Under the pieces are notes generated by a model. It was not told the origin of the DNA. It saw nothing but the letters and a program-made list of their open reading frames with translations, and did no database searches. Shown piece after piece: positions 1 through 51,153 of a stretch of 64,000 nucleotides of DNA (positions are counted from its first letter, which is position 1; every line of letters starts with the position of its first letter). Origin of the DNA: an uncultured Gammaproteobacteria bacterium (GTDB lineage: Bacteria > Patescibacteriota > Microgenomatia > UBA10105 > UBA927); NCBI GenBank assembly GCA_964629685.1, contig CAZVTT010000001.1, forward strand, positions 176,627-240,626. Reading direction: 5' to 3'. A program made the position numbers and the translations under genes.

Positions 1-419
1 CATTACTTAAGCTTAAGACATCGCTGTTAAAGCGATACCCCCGACTTAAAATAGTAGGCATGTTTGCTCCTCCTTTCCGCAACCAAACGCATAATGAAAA
101 GAAAAAAGTACGATCTGACATAAACCGGGTTAATCCGAACATCGTATTCATTGGTCTGAGCACTCCAAAACAAGAATACTGGATGTCAGAAAACCATAAT
201 GCCCTGAATGCAAATATGTTAATTGGTGTAGGTGCGGCATTTGATTTTATTGCCGGAACTGTACCGCAGGCTCCCCCATGGGTACGTGAAGCGGGACTTG
301 AATGGAGTTTTCGTCTTCTACAGGAACCCAAACGCCTTTGGAAAAGATATTTGATCGGAAATACTAAATTTATTGCTATCCTGATTAAGGAAATGACAAA
401 AACCGCATTTGGCAATTAG
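1..419 (+). CDS. WecB/TagA/CpsF-family (GT26) glycosyltransferase, C-terminal fragment; the reading frame is open to the window start, so it is 5'-truncated
   Basis: Translation contains GLSTPKQEYWM...GVGAAFDFIAG...PPWVREAGLEWSFRLLQEPKRLWKRY, matching the conserved C-terminal half of the WecG/TagA N-acetylmannosaminyltransferase family. There is no stop codon between position 1 and the ATG at 60. Confidence 0.6.
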   Translation, partial: LLKLKTSLLKRYPRLKIVGMFAPPFRNQTHNEKKKVRSDINRVNPNIVFIGLSTPKQEYWMSENHNALNANMLIGVGAAFDFIAGTVPQAPPWVREAGLEWSFRLLQEPKRLWKRYLIGNTKFIAILIKEMTKTAFGN

Positions 420-1281
420 AATACAATCTGTTATTCTTGGGTCTATGAAAATCCAAAATTTACTCAGAAATCACACCAAAATCATCGATAATCAAGGCCG
501 CCTATTCGGAAAATATGATTTATTCGTACCATTATTCCTTCTCATCCTTCTTGTACTGGGATTTTTTGTTACCCGGGTCTTACTTCAAAAAGATACATAT
601 ATTACCGTTGAGCTTTTTGCCTCCGGAGGCGAATGGTGGTGGAATAATCCTCAGCCCCCGTATTGGCTAACCGATCCAATCCAGCCGGGAGCAAAAGAAT
701 TTGACGCTCAGGGAAATGTGCTTGCTGAAGTTCTCGATGTACGGAAATTTGAATCTGGTGAACGAAAAATGCTCTGGATTAAGGCAAAACTAAAAGTCAC
801 TCCTGCGAACAAGGCGAAACAATACAGATTCAGAAGAGAACCGATTCAAATTGGATCACTGGTTTATATAGCCCCCAACAATATTAAAATTTATACGAAT
901 GTAATGTGGGTGGAAGGCACTCCCGAAACCAGGACAGAAGAACAACACATAGTTACGTTAAAAGAATATGATGTTATCCCTTGGCACGCGGACGCAATAA
1001 AAGTGGGAGACACGATGAAAGATGACGACGGAAAAGTTCTAGTAGAAGTACTTGAAAAAAATTCCGTTCCGGCGGAAATGATAACAACTGACGACCGGGG
1101 CAATGTACTTGTACGATCAAATCCGCTGCGGAGGGACATCACTCTCAAACTAAAAATGACTACAGTTAAATCACGAAACAGAAACTACTTTTCATATTTC
1201 CAACCTATAAAGATCGGATTCTATATCTGGATTCCGTTTGAAAACACTAACTTCAGTGGGAATATTCTTGCTATCGACTAA
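409..1281 (+). CDS. hypothetical membrane-anchored protein with one N-terminal transmembrane helix; possibly DUF4330-like
   Basis: 290-aa ORF. The hydrophobic segment LFVPLFLLILLVLGFFVT is followed by a charged soluble region. No catalytic motif was recognised. Confidence 0.4.
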   Translation: MAIRIQSVILGSMKIQNLLRNHTKIIDNQGRLFGKYDLFVPLFLLILLVLGFFVTRVLLQKDTYITVELFASGGEWWWNNPQPPYWLTDPIQPGAKEFDAQGNVLAEVLDVRKFESGERKMLWIKAKLKVTPANKAKQYRFRREPIQIGSLVYIAPNNIKIYTNVMWVEGTPETRTEEQHIVTLKEYDVIPWHADAIKVGDTMKDDDGKVLVEVLEKNSVPAEMITTDDRGNVLVRSNPLRRDITLKLKMTTVKSRNRNYFSYFQPIKIGFYIWIPFENTNFSGNILAID

Positions 1282-2411
1282 CTAAGCTTGCAGAATACTT
1301 GGTGGAGATTAGTTGCTGTTGTATCCCATGAAAAGGGCTTTACTGCCAGAAAACCTTTTTGTATTAGGGCTTCTCGTTCCTGCACGCTAAGTTGCAAAAT
1401 TTTTCTCATCCTCATCACAACTTCTGCAGTACCATCTGAGGTAAGTAAGGAGTATTTACGCATTGAGGAAAGCAACCTGGGAAGAAATCCCATTTGGGTC
1501 ACGAGTACGGGAGTTCCGCACGCCAGACTCTCGAGCACCACCAGAGGCATCATTTCCTGCTTAGATAAAAGGACCAATAGATCGGACAGCTGATATAACT
1601 GGCGAATGTCCCGGTAATCCTGAATAAAATGAATGTTCGGTAGCTTTAACTGATTTTGCATCTGTCTTAGCGCAAGATGGTACTTTCGGGAATACTCATC
1701 GTAATACGGAGGATACGCGATAATAAGTCCGATGTCTGGAAGATTCAACTGTTTAAATGCAAGCAGCAATTCTTTCACACCCTTTTTCTCATCCATCCTT
1801 CCTACATACAGGAAAATCCGTTTATACGGGTAGTGCAGTTTACTGCGCAATTGTTTTTTTTTCATTTCACTAATAGGATAAAACGTTTTGGTAGAAACCC
1901 CGTTGGGAACAATAATAGTCTTAGTTTTGTACTTCATGAGTTTATATGCCTGTAAGAACTCATTCCGTGATATTTCTGATACAAAACAGATAACCGATGA
2001 AGCGCTTACGGCATACTTCTGGAGCCCGATAACAAGCTTGCTAAGTATACGGACATACAGACCTCGCACGTTATAGATAGGTAAACTTGTCGGGATAAAT
2101 CGCTGATCCCCGTGAAGGTGAAACACCGATGGGACATTTCTCAAACGAGAAAACGTTTTGGCCACAGAAAAGGTGTACATCGCAGAATATATACAACTCA
2201 CGTCGCTTACTTTCTGAAAGAGTTTCCAAAAATCAACAATAGACCAAGTTAAATTTCTAAAAAATGAGAACTTACCGTTAAATCGGTTTGGCGGTTGCTT
2301 ATGAATAATAAGCGTATCTTGAGGGAACAACCTCACATAAGTGTCAATTATCGCTTCCGTAGCAACTTTCGAACCACTTGGAACATCCTGATAAAGGATT
2401 AGCACTTTCAC
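1278..2411 (-). CDS. GT4-family (GT-B) glycosyltransferase
   Basis: Contains GRMDEKKGVKELLLAF and C-terminal ESLACGTPVLVT, which is the E-x7-E region typical of retaining GT4 enzymes. Confidence 0.8.
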   Translation of the reverse strand: MKVLILYQDVPSGSKVATEAIIDTYVRLFPQDTLIIHKQPPNRFNGKFSFFRNLTWSIVDFWKLFQKVSDVSCIYSAMYTFSVAKTFSRLRNVPSVFHLHGDQRFIPTSLPIYNVRGLYVRILSKLVIGLQKYAVSASSVICFVSEISRNEFLQAYKLMKYKTKTIIVPNGVSTKTFYPISEMKKKQLRSKLHYPYKRIFLYVGRMDEKKGVKELLLAFKQLNLPDIGLIIAYPPYYDEYSRKYHLALRQMQNQLKLPNIHFIQDYRDIRQLYQLSDLLVLLSKQEMMPLVVLESLACGTPVLVTQMGFLPRLLSSMRKYSLLTSDGTAEVVMRMRKILQLSVQEREALIQKGFLAVKPFSWDTTATNLHQVFCKLS

Positions 2412-3484
2412 ACTATCGTACTCCCTTTTAATGCTTCATCCTCAGTAAAATCTACAGCTACATTTCGGATGTGATCAAGTATTTCTTTTCTGACTTTTGT
2501 TTCATTTACACTTCGTTCTCTACCCTTATGGAGTAAATACGAAAACGAAGGCGACGTACGTTGCTGCTCTGCGGAGACTGATAATTGATACGTGATTTTT
2601 CCGGATACTGTTGAAGCATATAGCTGTGTATCCGCGGTTAAAAGCATATGGAGTTTGCCCGAAATAGCCATCATTTCTTTGGGAGTAATGGCATATCCCT
2701 GACCAAGATTTTCTACATTTCTGTTATGGACATGGGTCAAGAATCCTCTACCTGACGTTGTAAGAACCCGGGTAATTTCCTCTACCACGTACTTTTTCTT
2801 CACAAAATACATAAAGCAATCGTTACATGTTATAGCGGTTAACGATGACGAATTAAAGGGTAATCCCAAATTCACGTCGCAGCAGATTAGCAATACCGAT
2901 GGTTTAACCACAAAATTCCTGGCCAGGTACAAGAGGTTGAATGAAGTATCAATACCGATAAGTGAACGGATATGTAACTCAGATGCTTTCGCAAGAAAGT
3001 TACCAGTCCCACAACCCACGTCAACCAAGACGTCGGTTTTTTTCATACTGGATAGTGTCAGGAGTGAAAGCATGTAGGTAGCCCGTCTGTTACGATTGCG
3101 CAAGTACGTATACCACGGTTTCTGACCTGGTGAAAGAACTGATAGCAATGACAAAAAAGATAAATAAGAACTAATTTTCCTTATGAGCGGTATTTCAAGT
3201 AAAATATATGTCCAACGAATCCATCGTCTGTCTTCTATAAGTCTACGCACAGCTTTTAGACCATTACCGTGTCTCAACTCGCTAATAACCTGTTGATTTA
3301 ATCTGGTTGGATCCTTTTTCAAATATAATATTCCGTGTAGCAATGGATACGCATCGCAGGCGCAGGAAACCACACCGGAGATACTCCCCTCTCCTGTGAA
3401 AAAGAATCGCTCAGTTATGGAGAGTAAATGCTCACAATAGGGGCATCGTAATAATGGAATAATTGCTTCAATCTGTTTAGCCAT
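2408..3484 (-). CDS. class I SAM-dependent methyltransferase with an N-terminal Cys-rich (Trm112-like zinc-ribbon) segment
   Basis: Motif I VLVDVGCGTGNFL. The N-terminus has CPYCEHLL...CACDAY. Confidence 0.7.
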   Translation of the reverse strand: MAKQIEAIIPLLRCPYCEHLLSITERFFFTGEGSISGVVSCACDAYPLLHGILYLKKDPTRLNQQVISELRHGNGLKAVRRLIEDRRWIRWTYILLEIPLIRKISSYLSFLSLLSVLSPGQKPWYTYLRNRNRRATYMLSLLTLSSMKKTDVLVDVGCGTGNFLAKASELHIRSLIGIDTSFNLLYLARNFVVKPSVLLICCDVNLGLPFNSSSLTAITCNDCFMYFVKKKYVVEEITRVLTTSGRGFLTHVHNRNVENLGQGYAITPKEMMAISGKLHMLLTADTQLYASTVSGKITYQLSVSAEQQRTSPSFSYLLHKGRERSVNETKVRKEILDHIRNVAVDFTEDEALKGSTIV

Positions 3485-4241
3485 TGTTTGCTGTATAGTA
3501 CATTTCGTAAAGATTATCTGCGGTAGATAAACCGCTTTTTACTAATCCGCGAATCTGACTTTTATATTTCCCGATTGCCATGATCTTCTTCCTTCCATAA
3601 TCACCGGTAGGCAGAACGTTATGGCCAATAATGCTTGCATTAATTGAGCTTAAGTATGCCAATCTGGAAAATATTTGTATAGAATTAGATCTATATGGTA
3701 CGTCTTCCCAGTACGTAATTCGGTTTCCGAAGGTTCGACGCCCAGCGTTAAAAGTCACCAAGTGATCCACGTGATTACCCACTCCTAACGGCAGATATAT
3801 TTCGGTTTCGTCACGAACACTCGTTAACATAAATTGACGCAATGCTCTTGTTACTTCTTCTTCGAAGATTGCATCCTCCCGGGAGATATTGCCGGAAAAA
3901 ACTGATTTAAACGAGTCGTATATAAGCTTACCTGACTTATTTTTTCTGAAAATTGCATCGGTAAAACCTCCGTGTACATATGCACTACCGAGTAACGATA
4001 ACGCTTTCCTATCCTCTTCCTTTCTACTACGGAACAATGCATCTGCATCACTACTTCCTGAATCATGCAAAAATTTTTGCGCGTCCTCGGAGTATCTCCC
4101 CATACACCCTTCCGTAATAACCGTATAAACGCATACCCGTTTTTTTTTTCGACTGTAAGCGGAAATCATGCCGCCGGCGGAAAGCACGGCATCATCCAGG
4201 TGGGGTGAAATAAACAGAGCATCGTAAAACATAAGCCTCAT
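3477..4241 (-). CDS. PIG-L/LmbE-family N-acetylglucosaminyl deacetylase
   Basis: LmbE signature FISPHLDDAVLSAGG near the N-terminus, with a downstream HVDH metal-binding motif. Confidence 0.8.
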   Translation of the reverse strand: MRLMFYDALFISPHLDDAVLSAGGMISAYSRKKKRVCVYTVITEGCMGRYSEDAQKFLHDSGSSDADALFRSRKEEDRKALSLLGSAYVHGGFTDAIFRKNKSGKLIYDSFKSVFSGNISREDAIFEEEVTRALRQFMLTSVRDETEIYLPLGVGNHVDHLVTFNAGRRTFGNRITYWEDVPYRSNSIQIFSRLAYLSSINASIIGHNVLPTGDYGRKKIMAIGKYKSQIRGLVKSGLSTADNLYEMYYTANNG

Positions 4242-4332
4242 CTATTAAGAAATTGATCATAATGATATTATATAGACGCTAAAATAGGAATTAGGGGCTT
4301 TATATTGCGAAATTTTCTTCTATAAATCATCT

Positions 4333-5625
4333 ATGAAACAGCTTTCAGTATTTTGGTCTTACCTACGAACCCATGTAACTCTGTTTGTATTTCCTGCCTT
4401 ACTGATCATGTTTGTATTGGGATATTTTGAATCATTACGGTGGCCGCTACCCGGACCAAAAGCCACACATGGATTCTTGAAAGCTCTTTTTCTCGGACTA
4501 GTTTTTATTTTAATTTTTTTCCGTACCGAGTTTAAGCAAACGAAGCACAAAATACAAAATTTACTGCTTCTTTTCTATTCTTTTGCATATGTACTTTCTT
4601 CTCTGTTTTCTCAGTCACCGGGGACATCATTTCTCAATCTATGGTATCCACTAATTTCCGCAACCATTATAATTTCATTTTCAAAAATCACACTCAAACA
4701 AAAACATATATATATCTTTATTTCAATTTGTGCATTATTAATCCTTACCACCTTCGTATTTGCCTTCTTTTCGATTTTCTATAGATATAGCGTTGACAAC
4801 CTCTATTACTTTATTTTTTTGGATCATAGAGCCAACTATTTTTTGAGTGAGCTGAGAAACTTCGGTAAATATGTCAGTCTGGGACCTTATATTATGCTTG
4901 CACCTCTTTGTTTTATCTTCCTTGTTCAGAAGCATTCATCACTTGCCCGGAGAATATTTTCACTTGGGATAATATTAATGACGACGATCACGGCTGTAAT
5001 AAGCAACAACCGTATCGACGTACTAATTATGGCGATACATTTTTCAATCCTGTTGTTTTTGGTTCCCCGCCGGACTGCCGTAATTATTTTAGCAATAGTT
5101 ATCCCGTTGGTTACATTTAGCCTATCGGTTTCGCAAATTTATTACGGTTTCAACTTGGCTGAGCGAATCCTTACGCCGAAAATAGAACGCGATCTGGAAA
5201 CAATAGATATGCGTTTTACGTATTGGCAAACGGCACTCTATAATTTCCGCAATTATCCGTTGGTGGGCTCCGGACCTAACTCGTATAACGATGTGAGTGA
5301 TTTCCCGTTGCGGCACTATTACGATCCCGGAACAAGACAATACACCGTACGTGCAGACGAAGGAATAGGCATTCACAATATTTTTATAGAACGACTCTCT
5401 GATACCGGACTGATTGGCTTCTCTGCGTTTATAGCGATACTGTTTTTCTTTTTAAGAACGGATGTCATCCGATTCATTAATTTTGATCCGGAAAAAAGAA
5501 AAGTATATCTGCTGTTTGCGCTTTCCTCCTGGACCTGGATCTTGTACGGAGTTACGGATAATGGCTATGGCGCTCAAGGCATGGTTACATTTTTCGTCCT
5601 GCGCGGTATAGTAAATCACCTATGA
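4333..5625 (+). CDS. O-antigen ligase/polymerase-like (Wzy_C/WaaL family) polytopic membrane protein
   Basis: About 10 predicted transmembrane segments. The loop contains HNIFIERLSDTGLIGF, resembling the Wzy_C domain. Confidence 0.6.
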   Translation: MKQLSVFWSYLRTHVTLFVFPALLIMFVLGYFESLRWPLPGPKATHGFLKALFLGLVFILIFFRTEFKQTKHKIQNLLLLFYSFAYVLSSLFSQSPGTSFLNLWYPLISATIIISFSKITLKQKHIYIFISICALLILTTFVFAFFSIFYRYSVDNLYYFIFLDHRANYFLSELRNFGKYVSLGPYIMLAPLCFIFLVQKHSSLARRIFSLGIILMTTITAVISNNRIDVLIMAIHFSILLFLVPRRTAVIILAIVIPLVTFSLSVSQIYYGFNLAERILTPKIERDLETIDMRFTYWQTALYNFRNYPLVGSGPNSYNDVSDFPLRHYYDPGTRQYTVRADEGIGIHNIFIERLSDTGLIGFSAFIAILFFFLRTDVIRFINFDPEKRKVYLLFALSSWTWILYGVTDNGYGAQGMVTFFVLRGIVNHL

Positions 5626-6719
5626 GGGTAGCCATCATCCACGACAGCCTTGTTGAGCTTGGTGGTGCAGAGCGGGTACTCTGGACATTTCTAAAAATAT
5701 TTCCCTCTGCAGACCTTTATATACCGTTGATCTCTCAGCAAAAACTCAATGCACTCAGAGAAGTATACACTGGTCGCATTTATTCGCTTCCGTTCAAATT
5801 CCCCTTCCCTCGCATTGCCAGTTATTTTAAACCCTTTCTATATTTCTATTGGGAACTGTTAAATTTAAATGATTACGACCTTGTTATTTCTTCATCTCAC
5901 TCTTTTTCATCAAAATCCGTAATTACCTCCCCCCATACGCTGCATATTTCATACATCTATACACCTCCCAGATATCTTTACTCTGAATTTAATGAAATGA
6001 CAGGATTACGGCGACCAGTCGTAAAGACTCTGACGATTTTACTATTCTCCTGGTTACGCGTGTGGGACTATATTGGTGCACAAAGACCGGATGTAATAAT
6101 CGCAATTTCACAAACTGTAGCCCGTAGAATAAAAAAGTATTACAGAAGAGACTGTCAGGTAATATATCCACCCTGTACTCTCCCTAAACCCTTTAACACT
6201 CGAAATAAAAAGGATGAATATTTCTTAGTAGTATCCAGGCTGGCAAAACAGAAAGGTATAGAACTGGCAATAGAAGCCTGCAATCAACTGAAGTTAAGAC
6301 TTCTGGTTGTAGGTGAGGGCGCTAATGCCAAATATTTGCGGAAAATTGCCGGTACAACGGTTGCGTTTACCGGAAGAGTATCGGATAAACAATTGGATGC
6401 AATCTATCTGAATGCAAAGGCTCTTATATACTGCTCTGTGGAAGAAGATTTCGGAATCGTTCCGGTAGAAGCTATGGCGCATGGAGTACCCGTAATTGCA
6501 TACAATTCCGGAGCGACTGCGGAGACAGTACTACCCGGAGAAACCGGAATATTCTTTAATGAGTATTCAGTAGAAAGCTTAAACTCTGCCATTAAGCAAT
6601 TTAATCATATGCAATTCTCCGCTTCTGTCTGTATACGTCAAGCGAACAAATTTTCCGAAACTAAATTCATTACGCAATTGCAAACACTTATTCGCAAACA
6701 TATTCCACAATATACCTAA
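5622..6719 (+). CDS. GT4-family glycosyltransferase (tandem paralog A)
   Basis: N-terminus MRVAIIHDSLVELGGAERVL. The C-terminal EEDFGIVPVEAMAHGVPVIA is a GT4 motif. Confidence 0.8.
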   Translation: MRVAIIHDSLVELGGAERVLWTFLKIFPSADLYIPLISQQKLNALREVYTGRIYSLPFKFPFPRIASYFKPFLYFYWELLNLNDYDLVISSSHSFSSKSVITSPHTLHISYIYTPPRYLYSEFNEMTGLRRPVVKTLTILLFSWLRVWDYIGAQRPDVIIAISQTVARRIKKYYRRDCQVIYPPCTLPKPFNTRNKKDEYFLVVSRLAKQKGIELAIEACNQLKLRLLVVGEGANAKYLRKIAGTTVAFTGRVSDKQLDAIYLNAKALIYCSVEEDFGIVPVEAMAHGVPVIAYNSGATAETVLPGETGIFFNEYSVESLNSAIKQFNHMQFSASVCIRQANKFSETKFITQLQTLIRKHIPQYT

Positions 6720-40293: not shown

Positions 40294-41301
40294 CTAAAAT
40301 TCAGGTATATCCGCACCGGAAACGAGATATGTCCCTGAGGCTCCCAGGTCTTTTCCTGACTGCGTTGTTCCCATAAACACAAAACAAGGAAGAAGTTGGT
40401 TGGTTTCCTTATTCCAAATATATCCCAGTTCGGTGGTGGCAACGGCAAAGTGTGAAAAGGAAACATCCGTGGTTGTTCCTTCTCTCGTATTTCTTTTTTC
40501 AACGTCTACCAAAACACCCTTGTTCTGTTCAAGCAGCTGAAGGGCATCCGACAAGGGCCGTATTTTGACAACAGCAGTCGATTTCTCTGGTTTTATAAGG
40601 TCGGCCATGAACATCTTTACACCGTCGGAAGAAACCAGCAGGGTTGTGCCCAAAGGATAACCCTCTTGGGCATACAGGGGTTTGCCATCTAGTAAATACG
40701 CAAAATCTACCCGAACCAGAGTGGGCTTAGTGGGGTCTGTTACGGGGGAAAAGACGAGCCCGTCGCTGTTTACGTATGTAGCTTGAAGTAGTTTTAGAGA
40801 GAGCTTGTCGTTTACAAAGCCAGACGATGTAATAAATGTCCGGGCGAGCGATTCCGCTGCCTGCGGAGATGGAATGTTCTTAGCATTGTTATCCGAGAAG
40901 GGGATGGTCATTTTAACGGATTGAGGGATTGCTACATAAGAAAGATGTTTTTCTCCGGAGCTCCACGAAAGCAACCCTTGTGCTTCCAGTGTCGTTTCCG
41001 GTTTGTTCGTAAAGCCGAGCTTCCCGGCAATTTCCAGAATTTGTGTCGTTGTATATTGTTGTGTAAGTGAATATGTCTGCACCTCGGAGGGAAATTCCCG
41101 AGGAGTTGTACCAATAGTAAATGTCTGTGAAGGGCTGTCGTTCTTTATGAGAGGGGAGGGGAGAATTTCAATATTCCGGGGAGCAGTCCCCAAATTATTG
41201 GGTTTAGCAGTGTTGCTTGTCGGCTGTATGCTCCGACGAACAATAACTGTTACACCAAGAGAAACAATAAACAGCGCAACGACAATAAGTATTTTTTTCA
41301 T
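40294..41301 (-). CDS. hypothetical membrane-anchored exported protein, the first gene of the T4SS-like block (a VirB8-like role is possible but unproven)
   Basis: 335 aa. The N-terminus has a single helix MKKILIVVALFIVSLGVTVIV, then a Thr/Ser-rich soluble domain. Confidence 0.45.
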   Translation of the reverse strand: MKKILIVVALFIVSLGVTVIVRRSIQPTSNTAKPNNLGTAPRNIEILPSPLIKNDSPSQTFTIGTTPREFPSEVQTYSLTQQYTTTQILEIAGKLGFTNKPETTLEAQGLLSWSSGEKHLSYVAIPQSVKMTIPFSDNNAKNIPSPQAAESLARTFITSSGFVNDKLSLKLLQATYVNSDGLVFSPVTDPTKPTLVRVDFAYLLDGKPLYAQEGYPLGTTLLVSSDGVKMFMADLIKPEKSTAVVKIRPLSDALQLLEQNKGVLVDVEKRNTREGTTTDVSFSHFAVATTELGYIWNKETNQLLPCFVFMGTTQSGKDLGASGTYLVSGADIPEF

Positions 41302-41305
41302 GTTT

Positions 41306-44179
41306 CTACCTACAGTTTCCTACGCCACCCGGAAGCATTGCTCTAATATCTACGGATTCAATCCCTTGTGAAGCAAAATCCGGTCCATCCCTGCGTTCAT
41401 AGTGTAAATGCGCACCGGTTGAATTACCTGTGTTGTCCATGCTGCCGATGGCTGCACCAGCCGTAACCTGTTGTCCGTTTGTAACATTGAATGCTGCTAA
41501 ATGGGCGTATATTGTCTCATAACTACCATCTAAGCTTCTCAGTCTGATCGCGTTCCCATACCCTCCAAGTCGTCCTACAAATGTAACTCTGCCGGCGTGG
41601 CCAGCTGTTACCGTAAACGTGGACAGTGCGGGACGACAGACCAAATCAACTGCATTCTCATTATATTGTCTGTGCGTGTAGCTGCTTACAGGAGCAGGTC
41701 CCTGACTTATACACACACCGGGACAGTTTAACGGATTGCTGCATCCACCCGGGTCCCGTGCGGGGTCACAGGGAGTAAAGTTGCACGCCGGATCCCCGGG
41801 GTTCTGAGTACAATCTACGCCGGGGCGATTGTAGTTATTAACCATTTGTTCTACCAGCGCCTTGGGTAAAGAGACCTCTTCACCGTTTATTCGTACAATA
41901 CAACGGGTTGGGTCTGCAGGATCATCCCGTAAACAATAAATTGGCTCTTCGCCACCACCCAGCTCCGGTGCATACTTTGCCATGATTGAATCACCGGTCA
42001 ATGATTTTGACTGATTCATGAGCAGAAGCAGAATTGCCAATCCTCCAAATAAAAAAACATATGGCCAGCTTTTTGCTGAAATGGTTCCACCATGCATAAA
42101 AGCATCGGCACCACTCAGTAAGCCACCTATAAATGATCTTAGGAGGCCAATTGCTGCGAATGCCCATCCCACCGGTCCGGCTACCGCGCTTATTGCCGTC
42201 TTTGCTATCCCCGAGACGGCCACTTTGGCAGTACCGCCGATAAGCTTTCTGACTGCGAAACGTACCCCCCGAGCTCTAACATTTGAAGCAAATGCATTTG
42301 TACCCCAACGTATTACCCAGCCTCCACCGGGATTCTCCTGTATAGTAAAAAGCCTTCCAAAAAGTTCCGGCGATTCAGATAAGAGTGATAGCATTAAAGC
42401 GTCCTGTATTACGAGACCACTTCCGTCGGGAAGACTGGTCATGGTGTATACGGGGGAGTTGGGGTTTAGTGATTTTGCGTTTTGGAGAAATGTAGCCAGT
42501 GCCGCTCTATTAACTCCAGCTTCGGGAAATGTTTTTTCATCCGAAAGGGTAAGGGTGAGAATAAACAACGCCTCCGCTGCGCTTGTCGGTTGAACTGCGC
42601 CGGAGACCAATAAAGCCTGTCTCTTTTGCATTTCGCTAATTGCTTTTAAGTCTGGAGCGCCTGTTTTTGTGGAGAGTCGTTTCCCTTCCGCTGCTGCTAA
42701 ATACAATATTGTGGCTTCGGCAAATTGGGTGCCAAAAACCGAACCAGCCATATCTCCCAAAAAACCACTAGCACCCTGAACAATTCCTCCTGCTCCGGAC
42801 CCTTGTCTGTCAAAGACGGTCTTACTGTTTTGCAAAAGTAACTGAAATTCATGATTGTTAACGACGGATGATCCCAAAGCGTCTACCAATTTTCCCGGGG
42901 TGCCGGTTAAGTCTGCCAGGCTTTTTCGTAAAGCGCTTGCAACAATTGTTGCACGTTCAGCGCGCGGATCACCGGAAAGGCTTATCCAGCCTTCGATGGC
43001 CGAGGCGGCAACTTTTTGTTCGCGAGTCTTCGCAATAGAGTGAAAAAATCCGGGAGTTGTTAATATATCAACAGGTGTTTCCGTGGCGTCATAAATTAAC
43101 GCAGCCCGGGAATAAATTTGTGCCCGGCGGAGAATTGAATTTGAATCTTCGTCTGAAATGCTTCCACCGGAAGCGAGCTTGTTTTCTATTTCCCTGGCGG
43201 CAACGCTGGAAAAAACCCCGACGGATAATACGGCTCCTGGTTTGGTTAATATATCTCTTGCTGCCATTCTGGATACCTGCCACTCGGCATTTTCGGCTCT
43301 AACCGCCGATATCACCGCGTCTTCATACTGGGGAACATCTCTCGCCGTGGCTCTTTTCGCACGTGCCAGCACAGCTTCACCGATAGTGTCGGGAGAATTT
43401 GGTACAGGTGTATACGATACTTGTGGTTGTGGTCTTCCGGAGAGCACCTCTCTTGGTGAGGGTGTCTTTTTTGTTTCGCCAACAGGTGTTTCCCTGAGTA
43501 CAAGTATGCCGTTTTCCCAGTGATATTGCTCTCTGGCCAATTCTTCCGTTTCCACCCTGTATTTGCTTTTTAGTCTGGAAAGAGTGGCTGCGGCAGTTTT
43601 GGTATAGGTATATTCAAGTCGGCGTTCATAATCCAAAGCAGAAAGATCGCGAGATTGATTCTGAATTTCTTCCGTTAGGTTCCGAATGTCTTTCTCTATG
43701 CCCCGCACCTCTTCCGCATCTACTGCAAAGGCGGTAAGCATCCGAATGTAGTTATTCATGAGATTTCTTGCATATTGATCTTGGAGGGCACGAAGTCTGG
43801 CATCCCGAGCCGAAAGTGTTTTATGGGCATTTTCCAGCTGTCTTGCGTGATAATCAATAATAGAATAATCAGTAACCCTATCGGCCGGTCTGTTGTTCTG
43901 CGGCATTGACGAATAATTCTTAGAAAAGTCAGTCGCCTTCAATATTCTAATAAGCATCATCTGTAATGCATGTGGGGAAGCATTGTGTAGGGCATCCGCT
44001 GCCTGAACGTCGTAGTCCATGGACGACATTGTCGCCCGAATATCTTCGTATTGAAGAGCTTGTTCCTGAATCTTAAACAATTCAGAGAATGTTAAGTCTT
44101 TGCCTGCAGAGAGTAATCCGATGGTTTCGGTTACAAATAAACCTGTTTTTGGTGGCTCGGAAGCTCCTTGTTCTGCCAT
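41306..44179 (-). CDS. large bitopic/polytopic protein with a C-terminal M23 (LytM-type) peptidoglycan endopeptidase domain; candidate cell-wall-remodelling component of the T4SS-like apparatus
   Basis: 957 aa. The N-terminal ~600 aa are coiled-coil-rich and cytoplasmic. Transmembrane helices lie around residues 655-720. A Cys-rich segment follows (CTQNPGDPACNFTPCDPARDPGGCSNPLNCPGVC). The M23 motifs are HAGRVTF...GYGNAIRL...HLHYE. Confidence 0.7.
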   Translation of the reverse strand: MAEQGASEPPKTGLFVTETIGLLSAGKDLTFSELFKIQEQALQYEDIRATMSSMDYDVQAADALHNASPHALQMMLIRILKATDFSKNYSSMPQNNRPADRVTDYSIIDYHARQLENAHKTLSARDARLRALQDQYARNLMNNYIRMLTAFAVDAEEVRGIEKDIRNLTEEIQNQSRDLSALDYERRLEYTYTKTAAATLSRLKSKYRVETEELAREQYHWENGILVLRETPVGETKKTPSPREVLSGRPQPQVSYTPVPNSPDTIGEAVLARAKRATARDVPQYEDAVISAVRAENAEWQVSRMAARDILTKPGAVLSVGVFSSVAAREIENKLASGGSISDEDSNSILRRAQIYSRAALIYDATETPVDILTTPGFFHSIAKTREQKVAASAIEGWISLSGDPRAERATIVASALRKSLADLTGTPGKLVDALGSSVVNNHEFQLLLQNSKTVFDRQGSGAGGIVQGASGFLGDMAGSVFGTQFAEATILYLAAAEGKRLSTKTGAPDLKAISEMQKRQALLVSGAVQPTSAAEALFILTLTLSDEKTFPEAGVNRAALATFLQNAKSLNPNSPVYTMTSLPDGSGLVIQDALMLSLLSESPELFGRLFTIQENPGGGWVIRWGTNAFASNVRARGVRFAVRKLIGGTAKVAVSGIAKTAISAVAGPVGWAFAAIGLLRSFIGGLLSGADAFMHGGTISAKSWPYVFLFGGLAILLLLMNQSKSLTGDSIMAKYAPELGGGEEPIYCLRDDPADPTRCIVRINGEEVSLPKALVEQMVNNYNRPGVDCTQNPGDPACNFTPCDPARDPGGCSNPLNCPGVCISQGPAPVSSYTHRQYNENAVDLVCRPALSTFTVTAGHAGRVTFVGRLGGYGNAIRLRSLDGSYETIYAHLAAFNVTNGQQVTAGAAIGSMDNTGNSTGAHLHYERRDGPDFASQGIESVDIRAMLPGGVGNCR

Positions 44180-46981: not shown

Positions 46982-48640
46982 TCATATTGTTTTTGCTCCA
47001 AATATTTCCCGTTCGAGTTTCGCCCGATCAATTTCCCTTTTGCTTTTTGCAATAATTTCCAATGCAGACATGATTGTTCCGTTTAATGTTATTCTTACCC
47101 TGTCGAACATATATGTTCCTTTGGGATCTTCAATATCTACTGTGTATACTCCGCTCGGAAGGGGCGTGGAGGCGGCAAATTGTCCCAATTTATTTGTTTT
47201 TAGGGCTCTGACAGGTATATCTTCCTTATCGCGAACAGTAACGAGTACACCCGGCAGAAGATTTCCCGTTGTATCTTTAATGATTCCGGTTACTACATTC
47301 GGGAATGTCGTGAGTCTCGGTAAGCCTGCTTTAACGGCAACGTCAGCTGAAATTACTTTTACTGTTGATTTTTCCGGTTCATTTGTTGCCACGCCGGCAG
47401 ACCTGTATCGCTGTTGCGGCTGTTGAGGCTGTGTAAGTCGTTGTCGAAGTGTTTGAATCTCCTGTTCCATTTTGGTTTTTTGATCCAATACTTCCAGTAA
47501 TTGTTTCTGCAGTTCCAATACGCGGTCTTCAGACATACTTTTTGTCTGCAGCTCTTTTTTTAGAGTTTCCATCTGTTGCTGTAGTTCATCTGCTTTCTTT
47601 TTTGCTTCTTCATCTTGTACCGGTTGGTTTACCGGAGCGGTTGGTGGTGGCGGCGTTTCAATCGGTTTCATTTTGGTTCCGGTTACTGATGGTGCCGCTG
47701 CTGTCTGATATACGTTCGGATAAGCAACAGCATACGCCGGAGCAGCCTGAGGTGATTGTTGTGGTCTTAGGGCAAAAAACGTGGTAAACCAGTCAAACAG
47801 TCCAAATGCATTTGTGGTAACAATTTTAGACTGAGCCACCGGTTTTGCATGTTGAGTTGCTATCGGTGTAAACGGCGCGCTTTGATGCACAGATGCGGTC
47901 GGCTGTGGGTACTGTTGTGGTGCCGTATGATTATTTTTTTGTGGCTTTGACTGGAACAGCGAGAATATCCAGTCGAATACATGTGACTTTTGTTTTTGTG
48001 CTGCGACTGGTCTGTTTGTCTGAGCGGGTGGTACGGCTTGCGTTACCGGTTTGGGAATTTGTATCGGTTGTACGGCTGACTGTTGGGGTATCACCGGCAC
48101 GAACGGCTGCGCCTGTGCCGGGGCGGCTGCTTTGACAACGGGTTGGGAGGCTTGTCCGTTTAGTGATGGTGACACAATTTCGGGTTTGCTTTTTTTAGTT
48201 CCTGTTCCCAATAGTTGTTTCTTTAAAGCATCCAATTGTATGTTTATACCGGCAAATGTAAACGGTTTTGTGTGCGATAGTCCCGGTGTTTGCGTCGGAA
48301 GGGTAGCCGGTGTGACCACGGGCGGTTTTTCCGTAGATACCGGTGGTGTCGTTTTGGTTTTTTGCCATAAATACTGTGTGGGACTGTAGATACTCTTTAC
48401 AAAAGAGAGAAACCAGACATCCATGGGGCGTTCTTCTACAGGTACGAATGCAAAGCCGACACCCCCAAGTGCAAACGTAGCTGCTGCCGGCCAGGTAAAA
48501 AAGAACGGCAAGGGTAATTTATACGAGATGTATCCCAGGATTGCGCCACCAGCCAGATACCCGAATTGCTTCAGGGTCATGTCACCAATAAGTCGGAACT
48601 GAAATGTGGTAACGTTTTGCGGAACCGGATGTTGTTCCAT
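46982..48640 (-). CDS. PrgI/VirB3-like membrane protein fused to a Gln/Pro-rich linker, a coiled coil and a C-terminal beta-sandwich (carboxypeptidase-regulatory-like) domain
   Basis: N-terminus FQFRLIGDMTLKQFGYLAGGAILGYISYKL...FALGGVGFAFVP gives two transmembrane helices with PrgI-like spacing. About 250 aa of P/Q/A/T-rich low complexity follow. A coiled coil is KKKADELQQQMETLKKELQTK. The C-terminus is VVTGIIKDTTGNLLPGVLVTVRD...GVYTVDIEDPKGTY. Confidence 0.45.
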   Translation of the reverse strand: MEQHPVPQNVTTFQFRLIGDMTLKQFGYLAGGAILGYISYKLPLPFFFTWPAAATFALGGVGFAFVPVEERPMDVWFLSFVKSIYSPTQYLWQKTKTTPPVSTEKPPVVTPATLPTQTPGLSHTKPFTFAGINIQLDALKKQLLGTGTKKSKPEIVSPSLNGQASQPVVKAAAPAQAQPFVPVIPQQSAVQPIQIPKPVTQAVPPAQTNRPVAAQKQKSHVFDWIFSLFQSKPQKNNHTAPQQYPQPTASVHQSAPFTPIATQHAKPVAQSKIVTTNAFGLFDWFTTFFALRPQQSPQAAPAYAVAYPNVYQTAAAPSVTGTKMKPIETPPPPTAPVNQPVQDEEAKKKADELQQQMETLKKELQTKSMSEDRVLELQKQLLEVLDQKTKMEQEIQTLRQRLTQPQQPQQRYRSAGVATNEPEKSTVKVISADVAVKAGLPRLTTFPNVVTGIIKDTTGNLLPGVLVTVRDKEDIPVRALKTNKLGQFAASTPLPSGVYTVDIEDPKGTYMFDRVRITLNGTIMSALEIIAKSKREIDRAKLEREIFGAKTI

Positions 48641-48825: not shown

Positions 48826-51153
48826 ATGGAGTCACCCTTTGTTCTCCTGGAACTAAAGAATAGCCGCGATAGTGAAGAGACGCCAGCCGCCATGGAGCAG
48901 GTGTTTGCTGCTCTGGGTTCAACCGGAGGGCATGGGGGATTATTACAACAATTATTCGGACCTAAACATCCGCCACGCTATTTCAGTTTTGAAATTGTGT
49001 CGGTAAATACGCGAATACATCTGTTTATAGGCGTACCGCAACACTTGCAAACCTATGTGGAGAGTCAGATAACTGCGCATTACCCGAAGGTACTCCTTGG
49101 TCCGGTATCTGACTACGCACCGCATTTTTTTTCTCTTCCGCATGAATTGGCACAGTTGGTGTTGTCGAATGCCTATTATTATCCGTTAAAAACGCATAAA
49201 GACGTTAAGGATCTGGATATCCTTACGGGTGTATTTGGCCAAATAGCGAAGCTACCGATGGGGGAAGCCGTAGCAATTCAAATCAGAATTAGCCCGGCAG
49301 GACACGGATGGATACACTCCGCCTCTTCTGTTGTGGCGCACGGAATTCCGGACCCTAACAATCCCGGCAAAATTAAAGCACATCCTCATGCCAGAATAAT
49401 TGAAACCAAGTTGGCGCAGATAGGTTTTTCTGCTGCCATCCGTGTGTTGTCTGTGGCACCGGATCATGAACGGGCGGAAGCCCTCATGAACGCGGTTGCC
49501 GGTTCTTATGGTGTTTTTACCCAAGGAGAAGGAAATGGTCTGGTGGTCATGCCTCCGGCTTTTTGGCAAAAAGGAAAGTTGGAAACCGCTTTTATTTCGC
49601 GTAGTGGTGATGTTCTTCCGCGGTCTCAGGTATTGGGCTCGGCTGAGTTGGCGTCGTTGTGGCATCCTCCCGGTTTGTCGTTATCAATGATCAAAAATAT
49701 TTCCTGGAGTGAACAACTTACGGGTGAAGCTCCGGAAAATTTACCTGTTTCGACGGAAGATGCTGAAGAACAGAAGCGGATTAACTTCTTCGCCCGTACT
49801 GAATACAAAAATAAAGTGGCTACATTTGGTATTAAAGGAGATGACCGGCGGAAGCATCTGTATATCGTGGGAAAAACCGGTACCGGCAAATCCACCATGA
49901 TTGCCAATATGGCAATTAACGACATGCGCAATGGTGAGGGTGTTGCCGTTATCGATCCTCACGGTGATTTGTGTGATGTGCTCCTGGATTTTGTACCGTC
50001 TTACCGGATTAATGATGTGGCATATTTGGATCCATCGGATACGGAAAATCCATTCCATCTAAATCCATTGGAAGTTAAAAATGAAACATACCGTGAGCTT
50101 ATTTCCTCCGGAATAGTGTCTATCTTTTATAAACTATATCATTACAGTTGGGGGCCAAGGCTGGAGTATATTCTCCGCAATGCCATTCTGACATTGCTGT
50201 ACGTTCCCAGATCGACTTTGTTACAGGTTCCGGAACTTCTTACAAATGAAAATTACAGGGCAAGAGTCGTGGAAAAATTGCCGGATCAGGTGCTGAAGAA
50301 TTTTTGGTTAAATGAGTTTGCCAAAATGAGCCCTCAGATGAAGAGTGAAGCGGTTGCACCCATATTAAACAAAGTCGGTCAATTTTTATCTTCACAGACG
50401 ATAAGAAATATTGTCGGTAACCCGGTTTCTACAATAGATTTAGAGTCTATGATGAATGACGGAAAAATAGTGCTCGTAAATTTATCGCAGGGGAAACTGG
50501 GCGAAGATAACAGTGCGCTGTTGGGTGCCATGATGATTACTAAAATGCAATTGGCAGCAATGAATCGGGTTTATTTGGATGAAGAGAAAAGACGGGATTT
50601 TTACCTGTACGTAGACGAATTTCAGAATTTTGCTACCAGTTCATTTATTAAAATTCTATCGGAGGCGCGGAAATACCGACTGGACTTGATTTTGGCGAAT
50701 CAATATATAGGTCAGATAGACGAAGAGGTTCAGGCAGCTATTTTCGGTAACACCGGTTCAATCGTCAGCTTCGGTGTGGGCGCCACGGACGCTCGTGTGC
50801 TTACCCGCGAATTTGGTCTGAAGTATAAAGAAGAAGAACTGGTGGCGCTGGGAAATCACCAGGTGGTATTAAAATTGTCCATAGATAACCATACCTCTAC
50901 ACCATTTTCGGCAAATACGCTGCCGTTGCCACGGAGCAGAAATCAAAATCGTGATAAAGTTATCAGATCATCCCGCGAGCGATATACGAAGCCGTTCCAA
51001 CGAAAAGATGAGCCCGCCATGTCTCCCACCACCGTCGATAATGTGTTGCAGCCTCAGATGCAACAGAATCAGCCTAAAAATCAGAATTCTGCTCCGAAGC
51101 ATACACAGACAAAGGAGAGTCGGCCACCTGTACCACCGGTTAAACCAACATGA
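48826..51153 (+). CDS. VirD4/TraG/TraD-like (coupling-protein-type) P-loop ATPase with an atypical non-membrane N-terminal domain
   Basis: Walker A HLYIVGKTGTGKSTMIANM. Walker B LYVDEFQNF. QYIGQIDEEVQAAIFGNTGS is conserved in the TraG/TrwB ATPase family. No transmembrane helices appear in the first 300 aa. A Gln/Pro-rich C-terminal tail is present. A HerA/FtsK-like assignment cannot be excluded. Confidence 0.55.
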   Translation: MESPFVLLELKNSRDSEETPAAMEQVFAALGSTGGHGGLLQQLFGPKHPPRYFSFEIVSVNTRIHLFIGVPQHLQTYVESQITAHYPKVLLGPVSDYAPHFFSLPHELAQLVLSNAYYYPLKTHKDVKDLDILTGVFGQIAKLPMGEAVAIQIRISPAGHGWIHSASSVVAHGIPDPNNPGKIKAHPHARIIETKLAQIGFSAAIRVLSVAPDHERAEALMNAVAGSYGVFTQGEGNGLVVMPPAFWQKGKLETAFISRSGDVLPRSQVLGSAELASLWHPPGLSLSMIKNISWSEQLTGEAPENLPVSTEDAEEQKRINFFARTEYKNKVATFGIKGDDRRKHLYIVGKTGTGKSTMIANMAINDMRNGEGVAVIDPHGDLCDVLLDFVPSYRINDVAYLDPSDTENPFHLNPLEVKNETYRELISSGIVSIFYKLYHYSWGPRLEYILRNAILTLLYVPRSTLLQVPELLTNENYRARVVEKLPDQVLKNFWLNEFAKMSPQMKSEAVAPILNKVGQFLSSQTIRNIVGNPVSTIDLESMMNDGKIVLVNLSQGKLGEDNSALLGAMMITKMQLAAMNRVYLDEEKRRDFYLYVDEFQNFATSSFIKILSEARKYRLDLILANQYIGQIDEEVQAAIFGNTGSIVSFGVGATDARVLTREFGLKYKEEELVALGNHQVVLKLSIDNHTSTPFSANTLPLPRSRNQNRDKVIRSSRERYTKPFQRKDEPAMSPTTVDNVLQPQMQQNQPKNQNSAPKHTQTKESRPPVPPVKPT

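Follow-up and report, generated by a model that had tools for sequence, protein, structure and literature searches.

A membrane-anchored M23 peptidase encoded directly after virB4 is a probable VirB1-like cell-wall hydrolase of a Microgenomatia type IV secretion system

We analyzed a 64,000-nucleotide stretch of DNA (contig CAZVTT010000001.1 of assembly GCA_964629685.1, positions 176,627 to 240,626; hereafter the window, from whose first letter all coordinates are counted) that carries a type IV secretion system (T4SS) locus. Our subject is an open reading frame (ORF) at 41306..44179 on the minus strand, which begins with ATG, ends with a stop codon at 41306-41308 and encodes a 957-residue protein with a C-terminal M23 metallopeptidase domain. 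The host chromosome is of the Microgenomatia type within the Candidate Phyla Radiation (CPR; Patescibacteria). By analogy with known systems, the protein is probably a VirB1-like cell-wall hydrolase that opens the cell’s own peptidoglycan for the channel and pilus of a Microgenomatia T4SS resembling the mating pair formation class MPF-FATA. Across related loci the placement of the gene after virB4 is conserved, and the outer enzyme domain is exchangeable on a shared N-terminal module (N-module).

Results

The C-terminal domain is an M23 peptidase with a non-canonical metal motif

The protein divides into the following parts, all encoded on the minus strand.

43496..44179, minus: N-terminal helical region 1 (residues 1-228), with no signal peptide and no Cys
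43388..43495, minus: poorly conserved Pro-rich linker (residues 229-264)
42260..43387, minus: N-terminal helical region 2 (residues 265-640), predicted to be cytoplasmic
42095..42259, minus: Gly/Ala-rich, mildly hydrophobic stretch (residues 641-695), after an Arg/Lys cluster
42014..42070, minus: transmembrane (TM) helix by hydropathy (residues 704-722)
41705..41959, minus: GGGEEP juxtamembrane motif and Cys-rich spacer (residues 741-825), predicted to be extracytoplasmic
41309..41704, minus: M23 metallopeptidase domain (residues 826-957)

Residues 856-931 matched Pfam Peptidase_M23 (PF01551) with 73.8 bits against a gathering cut-off of 28.7 bits (E = 1.4e-20), and scans of the whole protein against Pfam, NCBIfam and PHROGs detected no enzyme domain besides M23, the NCBIfam and PHROG matches falling in the M23 part. 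M23 chains in the PDB were matched at E = 1.8e-15 by the single sequence and down to 1e-24 by the family profile, the best solved-structure matches being LytM, lysostaphin, ShyA and Neisseria NGO1686 (3slu), with which the protein has the YxHL and HxH motifs in common. NCBIfam returned partial matches to DipM, MepM, ShyA, ActS and NlpD, none of them near its cut-off (e.g. 45 versus 500 bits), and the PHROG matches of the M23 part were to tape-measure and tail-lysin proteins.

We also aligned 21 family members, the non-close ones of which are 15-26% identical to the 957-residue protein. The columns C813, P816, H836, D845, G863, H893, H924, L925, H926, P950 and C956 are invariant, and the segments Y891-A-H893-L and H924-L-H926 align with the catalytic and metal histidines of 3slu and 6muk. 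The initial annotation had read the active site as HxxxD...HxH, and its second half holds, with both HxH histidines (H924, H926) and H893 in place. The HxxxD motif is absent: in profile alignments to 3slu, 6muk, TagE and ShyA, the position of its His is occupied by E841, in a column that is not conserved in the family. The family instead keeps a His further upstream, in the motif ITQGP..(S/T)H-x6-8-A-x-D (here H836-x8-D845), which aligns with residues 177-197 of phage phi29 gp13, NISQGENGSFSH188KGTLCID195FV.

The zinc ligands of phi29 gp13 are His188, Asp195 and His280 (PMC9692632). Because the family motif aligns with this ligand motif, the zinc ligands of the 957-residue protein are most likely H836 (codon 41672-41674), D845 (41645-41647) and H926 (41402-41404), and we propose H893 (41501-41503) and H924 (41408-41410) as the catalytic histidines. 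Likeness to gp13 (PDB 3csq) lies in the non-canonical first metal motif and in a match over the whole domain (E = 1.2e-5), whereas the two differ in spacing (H-x6-D in gp13, H-x8-D here) and in setting, gp13 being soluble, located at the phage tail tip and equipped with a lysozyme domain at its N-terminus, with no TM segment and no T4SS context. Canonical M23 enzymes such as LytM differ from the 957-residue protein in having their first ligand His four residues before the Asp, where E841 stands here. The initial annotation had named degenerate M23 residues as the sign of a non-catalytic protein; instead, H836, D845, H893, H924 and H926 are invariant in all 21 members, and the site looks intact, although it is not the canonical HxxxD site.

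The gene directly follows virB4 and belongs to a family with exchangeable outer domains

The gene is the fourth in a tightly packed minus-strand operon with the order PrgI-TrsD-VirB4-X-p335, in which X is the 957-residue protein.

46982..48640, minus: PrgI (VirB3-like) protein with a CarboxypepD_reg domain, 552 residues
46249..46941, minus: TrsD/TraD-like protein, 230 residues
44192..46246, minus: VirB4-type ATPase, 684 residues, with TraG P-loop, AAA_10 and CagE_TrbE_VirB matches; directly upstream of X in the same operon
41306..44179, minus: the 957-residue M23 membrane protein (X), directly downstream of virB4
40294..41301, minus: p335, 335 residues with a single N-terminal TM segment; last gene of the operon

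Only 12 nucleotides separate the stop of virB4 from the start of X, and 4 separate the end of X from p335, a protein for which we found no Pfam, NCBIfam, PHROG or PDB sequence match. The genes dnaN and dnaA come after the operon on the opposite strand. Taken together, the Pfam match, the TM segment and this synteny bear out the initial reading of a membrane-anchored M23 peptidase that belongs to a T4SS of the Gram-positive type, and they add its place immediately after virB4.

Two metagenomic proteins (P0001, 72% identity; P0002, 55%) are colinear with the 957-residue protein over its full length and share its MAEQ N-terminus. Because of this colinearity, and because the P0002 gene lies in the same gene order as in the window, we regard the gene as real and conserved. 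Word-indexed homologue searches with the full-length protein and with N-terminal profiles of 6 and 29 sequences returned only these two. Searched exhaustively with HMMER against 1.84 billion representatives, a 3-sequence N-terminal profile added only four distant relatives, which share the layout; two end in M23 and two in an Ig-like domain with an HExxH zincin-like motif, the latter read by eye from the sequences.

Scanning GTDB with the protein’s own N-terminal patterns found nothing, while scanning with VirB4 recovered 80 Patescibacteria loci (VirB4 identity up to 83%), among whose titles are Gottesmanbacteria, Shapirobacteria, Chisholmbacteria, Woesebacteria and Microgenomates. Many of the GTDB records (L002, L004-L007, L010 and others) bear the titles ‘uncultured Gammaproteobacteria’, ‘Pseudomonadales’, ‘Bathyarchaeia archaeon’, ‘Nevskiaceae’ or ‘Limisphaerales’, and such non-Patescibacteria titles on T4SS/dnaA loci of the Patescibacteria type are apparently wrong. 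The arrangement in which a coupling protein gene is followed by PrgI-TrsD-VirB4-X-(p335) and then by dnaN-dnaA recurs in locus L001 and in Microgenomatia loci of GTDB. A locally iterated N-module profile detected 27 ORFs in 81 loci, every one of them (27/27) directly downstream of virB4. For a breakdown by gene position, we restricted the count to GTDB loci in which virB4 is followed by 1.5 kb of sequence or more, of which there are 71.

25/71 loci: ORF directly after virB4 with the N-module, 15 of these with M23
4/71 loci: M23 ORF directly after virB4, N-module not detected
19/71 loci: large M23 membrane protein at another place in the locus

Enzyme domains vary within this family. Members carrying the N-module end in M23, CHAP (L059), Peptidase_C39_2 (L013) or a DUF7927-like domain with HExxH (L020, P0005, P0007), and ORFs at the same gene position in which the N-module was not detected carry CHAP (L038, L046) or a weak SLT_3 match (L023, L024). 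In other CPR classes, the large M23 proteins (950-1440 residues) likewise have a Cys-free N-terminus, a TM segment and Cys only after it, and hhalign found no homology between them and the N-module (probability 18%).

Two departures from this arrangement were seen. The gene after virB4 in L031 is split into two ORFs, one with the N-module (3867-5270) and one with the TM segment and M23 (5429-6547); the split may stem from a frameshift, from pseudogene formation or from misassembly. L041 and L049-L080, which are Chisholmbacteria- or Paceibacteria-type records, have virB4 followed by dnaA or dnaN, and a protein of 950-1440 residues with a C-terminal M23 domain flanked by Cys is encoded upstream of prgI (plus strand, about 100-4700).

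The enzyme is predicted to lie outside the cell behind a single transmembrane helix

Hydropathy analysis gave a clear TM segment at residues 704-722, preceded by a mild Gly/Ala-rich segment at about 653-691. One strong TM segment is present in 29/29 family members, 150-350 residues from the C-terminus, and the initial annotation’s transmembrane helices are thereby reduced to one strong helix after a stretch that is only mildly hydrophobic. This stretch (residues 641-695) may form a TM hairpin, a re-entrant segment or a glycine zipper. A VirB6/PrgH-type polytopic identity was rejected, since it needs at least five TM segments and the protein has one strong TM segment and one mild Gly-rich stretch.

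None of the 29 family members examined has a hydrophobic N-terminus, and in these members the charge changes across the hydrophobic region, from basic residues before it to acidic ones after it. Cys density in the family is 0.10% before the TM segment versus 2.65% after it. In the 957-residue protein, residues 1-748 are Cys-free and all ten Cys come after residue 748: eight in the spacer (749, 760, 790, 799, 804, 813, 819 and 823), together with C848 and C956. Based on the lack of a hydrophobic N-terminus, the one strong TM segment, the charge asymmetry and the partition of Cys, we infer that the N-terminus is cytoplasmic and that the C-terminus is extracytoplasmic and oxidized. About 700 residues would accordingly be cytoplasmic or membrane-associated and about 235 would lie outside. 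The Cys-rich extracellular module that had been described in front of M23 is thus present as eight Cys within residues 749-823, its outside placement being predicted from sequence features. C813 and C956 probably pair as a disulfide, because both are invariant and they flank the M23 domain.

Structure prediction was of limited help. AlphaFold2 models of the full-length protein (7 sequences) and of residues 741-957 (5 sequences) had predicted local distance difference test (pLDDT) scores of 44 and 42, respectively. The best-modelled part of the full-length model was residues 10-210 (pLDDT 50-85), and a small beta-hairpin and helix at residues 749-783 was the sole confidently modelled piece of the C-terminal model.

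Two sequence features around the membrane segment were also observed. The Gly-rich stretch before the TM helix is GxxxG-like, suggesting a possible glycine zipper, and the analogous protein in L041 matches Pfam Gly-zipper_Omp. The GGGEEP motif (residues 741-746, 41942-41959), in which G742 is nearly invariant among the 21 aligned members, could be a hinge or a processing site.

The N-terminal module is predicted to be helical, gave no match to VirB8, VirB10 or VirB6 families and diverges rapidly

The family-conserved core of the N-module spans approximately residues 345-500 and contains the motifs PGFF..QK.AA, KL.DALG and GGI.QGASG..GD.AGS.FG. In the low-confidence AlphaFold model the N-terminal region is all helical and made up of many helices, none longer than 29 residues, with breaks between them. 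In a crude heptad scan of the N-terminus, no window exceeded the 95th percentile of shuffled sequences, the best and marginal one lying at about residues 146-190, and the sole database hint was a weak SMC match (E = 0.085). A long coiled coil was rejected on the basis of the short, broken helices of that model and the heptad scan. The ‘about 600 cytoplasmic coiled-coil residues’ of the initial annotation therefore lack support, the Pro-rich linker at residues 229-264 being a further break in that region.

It had also been asked whether the N-terminus might be VirB8- or VirB10-like. Neither VirB8 (NTF2-like) nor VirB10/TrbI gave a Pfam or NCBIfam match in residues 1-850, and an N-module profile searched against PDB sequences matched nothing, including PrgK and other T4SS chains. 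VirB8, VirB10 and VirB6 identities were rejected on these Pfam, NCBIfam and PDB-sequence results.

We quantified divergence within the locus as percent identity to the proteins of the window, both in L001 and in the 18 closest GTDB loci.

VirB4: 89 in L001; 72-83 in the 18 loci
TrsD-like protein: 93 in L001; 60-74 in the 18 loci
Coupling protein: 87 in L001; 64-77 in the 18 loci
DnaA: 86 in L001; 63-76 in the 18 loci
957-residue protein, C-terminal part: 85 in L001; 28-42 in the 18 loci where M23 is present
957-residue protein, N-terminal 740 residues: 46 in L001; undetectable by BLASTP in the 18 loci

No other part of the operon evolves as fast as the cytoplasmic module. The last operon product, p335, is also fast-diverging: its identity is 45% in L001 and falls to about 24% at other loci.

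The protein is a counterpart of PrgK and of SEML1_0007 by position and architecture

PrgK is the VirB1-like peptidoglycan hydrolase of a DELTA-class T4SS, that of Enterococcus faecalis pCF10. The gene order in pCF10 is prgI-prgJ-prgK-prgL, so that prgK directly follows the VirB4 gene, as the 957-residue gene does in the window, and p335 occupies the slot of prgL (VirB8-like). At 871 residues, PrgK is also of similar size. In PrgK an intracellular N-terminal domain is joined through a TM helix (residues 254-274) to LytM, muramidase and CHAP domains outside the cell; conjugation requires the protein, which also binds PrgL, a VirB8-like protein (PMC11323569). The two proteins thus appear alike in having the N-terminus inside, a single TM segment and a hydrolase outside that includes an M23/LytM fold. 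The initial annotation had set the protein apart from PrgK by its fusion into a ‘single giant polypeptide’, a distinction that falls away, as PrgK itself joins an N-domain, a TM helix and hydrolases in one chain (PMC11323569). Differences lie elsewhere: the active domain of PrgK is the muramidase, accompanied by CHAP, whereas the 957-residue protein has M23 only, with the metal and catalytic residues kept, and exceeds PrgK about 2.5-fold in the length of its intracellular part. VirB1-like proteins are known to differ in how long this intracellular domain is (PMC12857230).

A second counterpart is SEML1_0007 of Ca. Southlakia epibionticum ML1 (Saccharimonadia), a protein of 1113 residues encoded directly after VirB4, in the order PrgI, 293-residue protein, VirB4, SEML1_0007, and ending in a DD-peptidase fold (PMC10633639 supplement). 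Transposon sequencing scored it as essential in two of three essentiality columns and as ‘GD’ in the first, and its whole-model Foldseek matches include a CPR ‘Peptidase M23 domain-containing protein’ (PMC10633639 supplement). Compared by position and architecture, both proteins exceed 900 residues, directly follow virB4 and carry a C-terminal peptidoglycan peptidase. SEML1_0007 differs in having a Hedgehog/DD-peptidase (M15-like) fold, not M23, and in coming from a different CPR class; its next gene encodes the lysozyme/CHAP protein SEML1_0006, in place of which the window has an unrelated 335-residue TM protein. Peptidase and lysozyme homologues downstream of virB4 have been reported as essential for epibiotic growth, probably replacing VirB1 (PMC12102498). 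The 957-residue gene lies within a T4SS cluster adjoining VirB4, and its product has the predicted layout of N-terminus in, single TM segment and hydrolase out that marks VirB1-like proteins; by this analogy, we consider it the positional and architectural counterpart of the PrgK-type VirB1-like hydrolases and of SEML1_0007.

Discussion

The wall-opening, PrgK-like role suggested in the initial annotation remains the best reading of a peptidase that is encoded in a T4SS cluster and whose metal and catalytic residues appear conserved. The protein would be made together with PrgI, TrsD and VirB4, and its N-module and TM helix would hold the enzyme at the assembling machine. Its outside part would comprise a disulfide-stapled Cys-rich spacer and then an M23 endopeptidase that binds zinc in the manner of phi29 gp13 and would cut the peptide cross-links of the cell’s own peptidoglycan at the site of the machine only. 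The resulting gap would let the channel and a VirB2-type pilus through.

Several observations weigh against this. The canonical first His of HxxxD is absent, with E841 in its stead, and assignment to the gp13 type combines a short motif alignment (E = 0.15 alone) with the whole-domain match to 3csq. The H836/D845/H926 site was assigned by alignment, both AlphaFold models being of low confidence, and Foldseek with the C-terminal model (pLDDT 42) gave no significant match. Furthermore, divergence of the N-module far outpaces that of VirB4, a poor fit to a conserved role in docking. The initial annotation had also raised the idea that the protein may scaffold the cytoplasmic ATPases; the 46% identity of the N-terminal region in L001, against 89% for VirB4, gives no hint of a tightly conserved interface, although we consider this weak evidence. 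Finally, searches of Pfam, NCBIfam and PHROGs place no glycosidase domain in the protein, unlike PrgK, TraG, TcpG and CwlT. Because of this, and because no sequence similarity to PrgK was detected outside M23, the protein appears to work like the VirB1-like hydrolases but not to be a sequence-family member of PrgK/TraG/TcpG/CwlT.

An own-wall hydrolase has to be weighed against enzymes with another target, no activity or another duty. As a host-directed lysin, the outer enzyme would attack the wall of the CPR cell’s bacterial host at the contact site so that the pilus or channel can reach the host, and the exchange of C-terminal enzymes would reflect differences in wall chemistry between hosts. 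Such a role would fit the variation of this enzyme among close relatives by N-module (M23, CHAP, Peptidase_C39_2, Ig-like domain with HExxH), as well as the resemblance of the M23 subtype to the phage tail lysin gp13 and the PHROG matches to tape-measure and tail-lysin proteins. The T4SS of Patescibacteria is moreover essential for epibiotic growth and thought to be non-conjugative (PMC10633639; PMC12102498). However, the enzyme is predicted to be tethered by its TM helix with only ~235 residues outside, and even fully extended PrgK reaches no further than mid-wall (PMC11323569). Our analysis gave no sign of a cleavage or release site, and modular hydrolase domains are equally normal in Gram-positive conjugation systems (PMC12857230), so that we consider attack on the host wall unlikely. 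We would give about the same low credence to a related idea, in which the protein is a polymorphic, host-range-determining T4SS subunit whose fast-diverging module and exchangeable enzyme head, in an operon highly conserved in its other parts, are both under diversifying selection because the head acts on the host wall; if true, the protein would be much like a tail lysin of phages that has become part of a secretion apparatus.

Somewhat less probable still is that the domain is catalytically dead and binds peptidoglycan or regulates another hydrolase, as do the LytM domain of PrgK, EnvC, NlpD and DipM. This would account for the replacement of the canonical HxxxD His by E841, and the partial NCBIfam matches include the activators ActS and NlpD; the LytM domain of PrgK is itself degenerate and regulatory, without both motifs and the metal (PMC11323569). 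Degenerate LytM domains, however, lose their His and Asp residues, whereas H836, D845, H893, H924 and H926 are invariant here among members only 15-26% identical. In addition, the H-x6-8-D pair corresponds to metal-binding residues of phi29 gp13, which is an active peptidase, and Pfam detects no second hydrolase domain in the 957-residue protein that could be regulated. We find it very hard to credit a housekeeping wall or division peptidase that merely adjoins T4SS genes near the replication origin and has no part in secretion. M23 peptidases are common in growth and division, DipM, MepM and ShyA are among the partial NCBIfam matches, and the locus does adjoin dnaN and dnaA, but all 27 N-module homologues lie directly after virB4 with operon-like spacing and no curated NCBIfam equivalog came near its cut-off. 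The analogous Southlakia gene is also counted in a T4SS cluster, SEML1_0006-0019 (PMC10633639).

A VirB1-like, own-wall role touches on the question of how the unusual pili of ultrasmall Patescibacteria cross the cell wall. A 2025 survey linked few VirB1 homologues to virB4 outside Paceibacteria and suggested other enzymes in that role (PMC12102498). The N-module family, encoded after virB4 and bearing interchangeable wall-cutting domains, is a concrete candidate for it in Microgenomatia. Enzymes of this kind have been described before, both in the conjugation systems of Gram-positive bacteria and in cultivated relatives, and in this respect the protein is a fairly ordinary component; what our results add is a gp13-type metal motif, an N-module family with swappable heads in Microgenomatia, and the rapid divergence of the cytoplasmic module. 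They refine the annotation and leave the general picture of T4SS function unchanged.

Other features of the locus

Further T4SS genes lie on the far side of the operon.

48826..51153, plus: VirD4-type coupling protein, 775 residues, divergent from the operon
55670..57148, minus: polytopic VirB6-like candidate, 492 residues, with a signal-like N-terminus and at least five hydrophobic segments
57207..59775, minus: six tandem paralogous T4SS_pilin genes (119-146 residues), each matching Pfam PF18895

The 492-residue protein has a weak TrbC/VirB2 match (E = 5e-4) and is a candidate VirB6-like channel subunit or pilin fusion. The six-gene cluster forms an array of VirB2-type pilins such as has been reported from Patescibacteria, and the T4SS locus as a whole is origin-proximal and MPF-FATA-like, with VirB2-type pilin arrays as described for this group (PMC12102498; PMC12857230). 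A phage or plasmid origin of the locus was rejected, since dnaA, dnaN, nadD and nadE are adjacent.

Three more observations concern neighbouring genes. An ORF of 1018 residues (52515-55571, plus strand) has no Pfam match and no hydrophobic segment; its counterpart in L001, of 1022 residues, is found in the same place, between nadE and the pilin/VirB6-like block. A sigma factor gene of the extracytoplasmic function (ECF) type (59684-60313, plus strand) is divergent from the pilin array. Finally, the stretch at 61201-63420 (plus strand) encodes HMG-CoA reductase and a thiolase/HMG-CoA-synthase-like protein, mevalonate-pathway genes in a CPR genome.

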